Shown here in pieces: positions 337 to 606 of a stretch of 24,792 nt of DNA; within the stretch, counting starts at the first letter, position 1, and every line of letters starts with the position of its first letter. A program made the translations under genes and the position numbers. The stretch is from a virus (taxonomy: Duplodnaviria > Heunggongvirae > Uroviricota > Caudoviricetes). The notes under the pieces were generated by a model. The model was not told where the DNA came from. It saw only the letters and a program-made list of their open reading frames with translations, and searched no databases. The stretch covers positions 1 through 24,792 of the IMG/VR virus record IMGVR_UViG_2648501235_000003, one strand, 5' to 3'.

Positions 337-606
337 CTATTTCATTCCGCCAATATTTTCCCACCTCCCGTCAGCACGCAGAATTTGCAGCGGTCTTACC
401 ACACACTGTATCTGCTTTTTATCTGCATCCAGTATCACCACCTGCGTGATTACCCCGTCCTGCTCCGGAATAATGCCATTCTCATCTGACTCCAGAATGT
501 CTGCCGGTCCCAGTCGCAGCTGTGCTGTAAGTAACTCCCCGTTTTCACGGTCATCATGCTTTCCGCAACCGCACAGACGCTGCATAAGTTTTTTTAGTAT
601 GTTCAT
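337..606 (-). CDS. Hypothetical 89-aa protein translationally coupled to the tail-fibre gene (possible fibre accessory protein or moron)
   Basis: ATG at 606-604 preceded by AGGAG with 6-nt spacing; arrangement TGA-c-ATG with the tail-fibre stop at 608-610; stop TAG at 337-339. No family recognised. Confidence 0.5.
   Translation of the reverse strand: MNILKKLMQRLCGCGKHDDRENGELLTAQLRLGPADILESDENGIIPEQDGVITQVVILDADKKQIQCVVRPLQILRADGRWENIGGMK

Follow-up and report, generated by a model that had tools for sequence, protein, structure and literature searches.

A free-standing paralogue of the fibre knob, translationally coupled to the side tail fibre gene of a lambdoid prophage, as a candidate accessory of the fibre tip

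Why would a phage make a small separate protein immediately after its side tail fibre? The question is raised by IMG/VR virus record IMGVR_UViG_2648501235_000003 (Caudoviricetes), of which positions 1 to 24,792 were analysed (24,792 nucleotides (nt), here called the window) and in which a gene for a protein of 89 amino acids (aa) lies on the minus strand at 337..606, stop codon included, directly behind a side tail fibre gene (608..1927, minus strand, 439 aa). We suggest tentatively, with somewhat less than even confidence and on the strength of sequence comparisons, that the small protein may be a dispensable trimeric accessory of the fibre tip, either a helper or a transient cap; what speaks for this accessory role is where the gene lies and what it is linked to, not the family to which it belongs. 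The gene itself is real and is translationally coupled to the fibre gene. Its open reading frame (ORF) runs from an ATG at 606-604 to a TAG at 339-337 and encodes MNILKKLMQRLCGCGK...ENIGGMK, and a longer program-called ORF at 337..738 includes this 89-aa protein (MNILKKLMQRLCGCGKHDDRENGELLTAQLRLGPADILESDENGIIPEQDGVITQVVILDADKKQIQCVVRPLQILRADGRWENIGGMK). At the coupling junction (607..617, minus strand) the fibre stop codon TGA (610-608) is followed by a single C (607) and then by the ATG, giving TGA-C-ATG, with a Shine-Dalgarno sequence, AGGAGA, at 617-612, 5 nt upstream of the ATG. The intrinsic terminator that ends the late operon (289..323, minus strand) follows 13 nt past the stop codon of the small ORF and consists of a hairpin of 11 pairs at 323-299 and a T-run. 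A preliminary description of this DNA had placed the start 1 nt past the fibre stop behind a good Shine-Dalgarno sequence and had called the gene the last of the late operon, before the terminator, all of which is confirmed; it had also likened the position to that of Tfa in lambda, and the gene does sit there. Lambda Tfa has 194 aa, and the small protein is half that size. The arrangement is the same well beyond this record: of 83 gene copies compared (from the window, IMG/VR loci and two phage records), all 83 have a TGA stop that ends 1 nt short of the ATG, 78 of the 82 readable ones share an identical junction of 28 nt that includes AGGAGA, and the reading frame is unbroken in every one of the 83 loci; a lack of such conservation in related prophages is what the preliminary description had named as a refutation of its reading. 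The terminator is kept in the related loci too, and they diverge only beyond it, into effector cargo.

What kind of protein is it? Residues 28-89 (340..525, minus strand) match the Pfam domain PF06820 (Phage_fiber_C, "PfC") across profile positions 1-64 of 64 with 123 bits against a cutoff of 25 (E 6.1e-36), and PHROG 576 matches the protein end to end, 89 of 89 residues (E 5.5e-59); a profile search was one of the checks that the preliminary description had proposed. The window gene is a member of PF06820 and PHROG 576 and an orthologue of Sp5 ORF68, in a family that is already catalogued. The earlier view of the gene as unassigned has to be given up, since PF06820, PHROG 576, the PGAP name ('phage tail fiber C-terminal domain-containing protein') and Sp5 ORF68 (PMC5155283) already record the family, while the view that this family differs from that of Tfa is borne out: a Pfam scan of the protein at E<=1 returned PF06820 only, with no match to Tfa (Caudo_TAP) or Gp38_N. 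An NCBIfam scan of the protein and an Rfam scan returned nothing, PADLOC models gave 0 families at E<=1, and a search of the PDB by sequence gave no match with the single protein and chance-level matches only with a profile. The traits of the Sp5 ORF68 group are all present in the window, namely a length of about 89 aa, the N-terminus MNILKK...LCGCGK, and a place directly behind a PfC-tipped fibre and ahead of the operon's terminator. Copies in Shiga toxin (Stx) phages, phage 434 and Lambda_2B8 share 92-98% identity with the window protein, and nothing material separates the latter from the 89-aa orthologues Sp5 (VT2-Sakai) ORF68, phi24B 'gp59', phage 434 CPT_434B_24 and Lambda_2B8 gp24, which occupy the same place after a PfC-tipped collagen-like fibre. 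Annotations of these orthologues conflict ('tail fiber protein', 'hypothetical protein' and, for the phage 434 copy, where no evidence is given, 'tail fiber assembly chaperone'), and we found no experiment behind any of them. To this catalogue we add near one-to-one linkage counts, a constraint on the ORF that exceeds that on the fibre knob, a Salmonella pair on a third tail type, the absence of a recombination substrate, and overlooked peptides in a public virion proteome.

The domain also ends the upstream fibre, whose EPclA architecture was defined by Ghosh et al. 2012 (PMC3368898) as PfN, coiled coil, collagen and PfC; the window fibre (PF08400, PF01391, PF06820) has PfN at residues 3-135, then the coiled coil and the collagen Gly-X-Y repeat, and PfC at residues 365-428 (nt 644-835). 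The two PfC domains of the window are 35% identical (E 8e-12), and their alignment opens exactly where the fibre's collagen repeat stops, with GELLTAQLRLGP on the ORF side. Judged by sequence, the small protein and the C-terminal knob of the adjacent fibre are paralogues. Compared with the fibre PfC of EPclA and EPclB (PMC3368898), with which it shares the Pfam domain and homology from the collagen/PfC boundary onwards at 29-35% identity, it is free-standing, carries a 27-residue N-terminal segment with a helix and a cysteine motif in place of the stalk, lacks the fibre's last 11 residues and falls in a more conserved clade of its own. In those fibres PfC is the proven nucleus of trimerisation and refolding: PfC alone trimerises, and Col-PfC refolds fast after heat denaturation with the downstream gene absent (PMC3368898).

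Structure prediction, another check named in the preliminary description, likewise points to a fibre tip. An AlphaFold2 (AF2) model from 15 sequences predicts an all-beta core at a predicted local distance difference test score (pLDDT) of 85-92, a helix at residues 3-11 and a disordered linker, with pLDDT < 50 for residues 13-24, and the best structural matches of the PfC model are Mu tail fibre structures, including 5YVQ. A first AF2 model from a shallow alignment (pLDDT 62.5) was discarded; Foldseek against the PDB gave nothing meaningful for it. The N-terminal segment (residues 1-27; 526..606, minus strand) comprises the helix, which is short and amphipathic, then a conserved L-x-G-C-x-K motif, and a charged linker; L11, G13, C14 and K16 are invariant across the proteins from Escherichia coli, Citrobacter rodentium and Salmonella. 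A lipoprotein of the Cor or T5 Llp type, which the conserved L-x-G-C might bring to mind, was considered and rejected: the 13 preceding residues are not hydrophobic, with a maximum 7-residue Kyte-Doolittle value of 0.51 against 3.13 for Lpp, and by the same measure the segment contains no signal peptide.

Is the gene doing anything, and is it doing it as a protein of its own? It is under purifying selection. The ratio of nonsynonymous to synonymous polymorphism (pN/pS) is 0.117 for the whole gene over 57 distinct alleles, 0.27 for the N-terminal segment and 0.066 for the PfC part, against 0.19 for the fibre's own PfC, and the stronger constraint on the ORF's PfC fits a conserved partner, not a variable receptor-binding function. 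With a pN/pS of 0.12, a functionless relic left by partial duplication of the fibre gene is ruled out. The related idea of a moron or lysogenic-conversion gene might appeal to the adjoining type III effector cargo (TccP2 in the window; NleG, NleC or SopA at other loci) and to the deletion analysis of Sp5, in which a near-complete set of in-frame deletions tested in E. coli K-12 found the fibre gene ORF67 essential and ORF68 is listed among the non-essential late genes (PMC5155283). But no promoter-like site was found on the minus strand within 1..2700, the gene lies upstream of the operon terminator, and its start is coupled to the fibre stop; moreover, relic and moron alike sit badly with its near one-to-one occurrence with PfC-tipped fibres and with its decay in a Salmonella remnant, described below, where most of the fibre has been lost. 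For these reasons the small moron entertained in the preliminary description is disfavoured, and we give moron and relic together hardly any credence.

An equally slim chance attaches to a programmed +1 frameshift or stop bypass, which would give a minor fibre carrying two knobs in tandem. In its favour, the small ORF lies in the +1 frame with respect to the fibre gene, in E. coli as in Salmonella; in 76 of 83 loci no stop interrupts that frame over the 46 codons that precede the ATG; and the search database of a phi24B virion proteome included hypothetical 'Fusion_6159_FS1/FS2' entries, with the remark 'Spike or just gp59?' in a table of its supplement (10.64898/2026.04.10.717836). Against it, the pN/pS of this extension in the ORF frame is 1.78, and it is therefore non-coding in that frame. 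In Salmonella the ORF frame is closed by a TAA two codons ahead of the ATG, the supplement as available lists no fibre-ORF junction peptide (10.64898/2026.04.10.717836), and no slippery site is seen in the GAA-TGA-C of the window, nor was a frameshift signal found for ORF68 by Mondal et al. 2016 (PMC5155283).

If the small protein is made for its own sake, with what does it travel? The small ORF tracks PfC-tipped fibres almost one to one. Among 50,697 phage records, 296 carry the ORF and 296 a fibre-type PfC, with a near-identical breakdown by organism, and in the phage-record rows compared the ORF starts 5 nt past the end of the fibre match. Complete E. coli genomes give the same picture: the ORF is found in 698 of 5426 (6321 copies, a median of 10 per carrier) and the fibre knob in 697 of 5426 (6159 copies). 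The pair occurs on three tail types, as side fibres of lambda-like siphoviruses (the window, phage 434, Lambda_2B8), as lateral fibres of podoviruses of the 933W/Sp5 type, and in a Salmonella enterica prophage with baseplate-wedge genes, where the fibre has only 212 aa and neither collagen nor PfN. Some cluster members of this 212-aa fibre are named 'carbohydrate-binding protein'. The Salmonella orthologue, found largely in subsp. salamae (loci L083 and L086-L088), has 79 aa, is 59% identical to the E. coli ORF and keeps the N-terminal M-x-I-[LF]-K-K...L-x-G-C-x-K; its start overlaps the last 14 nt of the fibre gene, it has its own GGAGG, and the pair is followed by a terminator and then by NleG and SopA, in a tail module with Dit-like, sheath-initiator and wedge genes. 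Between E. coli and Salmonella the ORF is 59% and the fibre PfC 41% identical, whereas ORF and knob are 29-35% identical. Orthologues are thus closer than paralogues, so that the duplication predates the divergence of the modules, and the pair is old and has been inherited together.

Two further loci show what happens when the fibre tip is lost or replaced. In a Salmonella remnant beside a sulfatase gene (loci L090-L092, about 2970-3640) only the 3' part of the fibre is left, and a stop codon divides the small ORF, whose conserved cysteines are gone (HYLSGGDK); this decay alongside a truncated fibre counts for a fibre-linked role. In Stx2-86 (locus L089, 5174-8056), with an Sp5-type backbone, the fibre ends in Peptidase_S74 and is followed by a Gp38_N adhesin and then by Cor; Gp38_N was detected in this gp22 by the same Pfam scan that gave none in the small ORF. 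As far as these sequences tell, the exchangeable unit is the fibre tip together with its downstream partner.

Tip exchange also bears on the one role already in print, since Mondal et al. 2016 proposed Sp5 ORF68 as an 'intragenomic reservoir' (PMC5155283), that is, a silent spare tip cassette that could replace the fibre C-terminus by recombination. Rare natural hybrids show that illegitimate joins occur: cluster P0061 (4 member sequences) joins fibre collagen to an ORF-type PfC, and P0147 (1 sequence) joins the ORF N-terminus to a fibre-type PfC. In a further case, P0121 (1 sequence, ending at a contig end), a one-base frameshift runs the fibre into the ORF frame. All three may be real recombinants or assembly artefacts. 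Against a reservoir, the ORF has no DNA word longer than 8 nt in common with the PfC region of the fibre gene, so that homologous exchange would lack a substrate, and among the best 120 of 172 and the best 120 of 287 matches none was a full-length fibre ending in an ORF-type knob. Also against it, the gene has retained a Shine-Dalgarno sequence and an ATG of its own in E. coli as well as in Salmonella, it is translated, and it is under strong purifying selection that extends to its unique N-terminal segment. We consider a reservoir very unlikely.

Is the small protein, then, part of the virion? The proteome supplement of the phi24B study lists, for purified virions, two peptides that belong to the ORF only, VITQVVILDADKK and ADGTWENIGGMK, with 3 spectra each, and 2267 spectra for the fibre, gp61 (10.64898/2026.04.10.717836). 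The small protein is translated. On these listed counts its spectra per residue are about 50 times fewer than those of the fibre (6 for 89 aa versus 2267 for 649 aa). The main text of the preprint is silent on the small protein, and Bor and Lom, at comparable signal, are classed as contaminants in that study (10.64898/2026.04.10.717836). The same study proposes the needle gp56, not the fibre knob, as the likelier binder of the terminal receptor, BamA (10.64898/2026.04.10.717836).

These counts matter most for the possibility that the small protein is a stable virion component, a PfC trimer that sits permanently on the fibre tip as a receptor-binding adhesin and widens host range in the manner of gp38 of T2/S16-type phages. 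Such an adhesin would explain the peptides listed for purified phi24B virions and the sharing of a slot with the Gp38_N adhesin of Stx2-86, and dispensability on rough K-12 would be expected if it were aimed at other surfaces. About fifty-fold fewer spectra per residue than the fibre are hard to square with a permanent tip. So is its conservation, which exceeds that of the knob by both pN/pS (0.066 vs 0.19) and identity between E. coli and Salmonella (59% vs 41%); exposed adhesins usually show the opposite. We therefore regard a permanent adhesin as unlikely.

A protein that is late, mostly not virion-bound and dispensable for plaques could also act away from the particle. As a soluble decoy or blocker, its knobs, freed at lysis, would bind a surface ligand on debris or on neighbouring cells and so limit futile re-adsorption of progeny or superinfection, much as T5 Llp or Cor do but without export. 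The predicted fibre-tip fold would suit this, and genes beside receptor-binding genes often act in this way; Stx2-86 has cor here. Without a signal peptide, however, action would be confined to the time after lysis, 35% identity to the knob gives no reason to expect the same ligand, and the protein matches no PADLOC model, so that we think the decoy quite improbable. A broader speculation, doubtful in our eyes as well but a little less so, is that a paralogue of the knob caps the real knob or competes with it, as a removable safety cap or as a soluble mimic that is set free at lysis and occupies a surface ligand. If that were true, a knob paralogue would govern when and where side fibres engage cells, an accessory principle unrelated to Tfa, to gp38 and to intramolecular chaperones. 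The principle appears to be restricted to prophages with effector cargo in attaching/effacing E. coli, C. rodentium, E. albertii and some Salmonella.

We return to the helper or transient cap, the reading that we tentatively prefer. The fibre chaperone or accessory protein suggested in the preliminary description likewise agrees with the strict linkage to PfC-tipped fibres. The small protein is probably a trimeric knob, because PfC trimerises by itself in the fibre; its most likely target is the tip, because tip and partner are inherited and exchanged together; and a helper or transient cap is favoured over a permanent adhesin because the protein is unneeded for trimerisation or for plaques on K-12 and is scarce in virions. 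We speculate that a small cytoplasmic late protein, co-made with the fibre through translational coupling, would form its own PfC trimer, a stalk-less 'mini-knob' with the helix and cysteine motif at the place where the collagen helix would emerge. This mini-knob might then act on the distal knob of the fibre, either aiding maturation of the tip or briefly capping it, little of it would remain on the virion after purification, and it would be dispensable on laboratory hosts.

Several points weigh against this proposal. The contact between the small protein and the fibre tip is one that we infer. The fibre and Col-PfC trimerise and refold alone (PMC3368898), and the small protein is thus not needed for trimerisation. 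The dispensability of Sp5 ORF68 may mean only that the function is hidden on K-12, and the trace peptides in virions could be contamination. Co-variation with the fibre C-terminus, a further check from the preliminary description, holds as co-occurrence, which is almost one to one, but not site by site: over 77 loci of shallow diversity, 45 pairs of sites in the ORF and the fibre knob gave a single association, ORF residue 22 with position 37 of the last 78 fibre residues, and its haplotypes are explicable by linkage.

How does such a partner compare with known fibre accessories? Lambda Tfa, Mu gpU and P2 gpG (Caudo_TAP) share its slot directly past the fibre gene and are likewise exchanged with the tip, and the Mu tail fibre in 5YVQ, among the best matches of the PfC model, was solved in complex with its chaperone. 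By analogy, a helper or tip-bound role for the small protein is plausible. It differs from the Tfa family in having no sequence match to it, being homologous to the fibre tip and not to the chaperone, and in being unneeded for recombinant fibre trimerisation (PMC3368898) or, in the deletion study, for Sp5 infectivity (PMC5155283). From the gp38-type adhesin of Stx2-86 (gp22), which has the same slot in a phage of the same backbone, it differs in lacking Gp38_N, in being highly conserved and not hypervariable, and in its trace amount in virions. The transient fibre chaperone 'caps' of Alteromonas phages, as their report describes them, are also small cognate proteins encoded 3' of the fibre gene and common, along with the fibre, to different morphologies, and the chaperone of phage A5 was dispensable for active fibre production (PMC10579305). 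Those chaperones are described there as resembling intramolecular chaperone domains of the Peptidase_S74 type (PMC10579305), whereas the small protein, by its sequence, resembles the knob itself.

What follows depends on which of these roles it has. The fibres and their partner belong to the lambdoid and Stx prophages by which Shiga toxin and type III effectors are spread. If the small protein is a cognate partner, anyone rebuilding or retargeting these fibres in engineered particles would need it, as would any interpretation of the host range of Stx phages, and it would exemplify a fibre accessory that arose from the tip of the fibre. Should it be just a dispensable helper, the practical consequence is small, and the labels 'tail fiber protein' and 'tail fiber assembly chaperone' are to be taken as placeholders.

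The surroundings of the pair were also annotated. Upstream of the fibre lie Lom (1986..2585) and the tip protein J (2655..6062), and terminator-like hairpins stand on the minus strand after both, at 1938-1959 after lom and at 2613-2636 after J; as these lie inside the late operon, upstream of the fibre, expression of the fibre and the small ORF would depend on antiterminated late transcription. On the other side, on the plus strand at 1..212, is the 3' end of an EspF-repeat effector, proline-rich with two 47-aa repeats (Pfam EspF, E 3.9e-42), whose homologue is named TccP2 by PGAP. It converges on the terminator region of the late operon, which marks the window as part of an effector-carrying lambdoid prophage. 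In both E. coli and Salmonella the module of fibre and partner directly precedes type III effector cargo. Only about 13% of complete E. coli genomes carry the module, and other carriers found were E. albertii, C. rodentium and some Salmonella enterica, a distribution that seems to tie it to effector-carrying prophages of attaching/effacing pathogens. A profile search of 1.84 billion representatives gave only 90 matches, which marks the family as very narrow; most were pieces of the same Escherichia proteins, and one was the 79-aa Salmonella orthologue. A scan of one genome per species returned only E. albertii and a contaminated 'Xanthomonas pisi' contig. That contig (NZ_JPLE01000138.1, 'Xanthomonas pisi DSM 18956', 725 bp, locus L084) carries the small ORF of E. 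coli at 92% identity and is almost certainly E. coli contamination. The PfC profile also gave weak, summed multi-repeat matches to CarboxypepD_reg or SprB/PKD repeat proteins (P0188, P0205, P0222 and others), which probably reflect generic beta-strand similarity and possibly a distant relation of fold.

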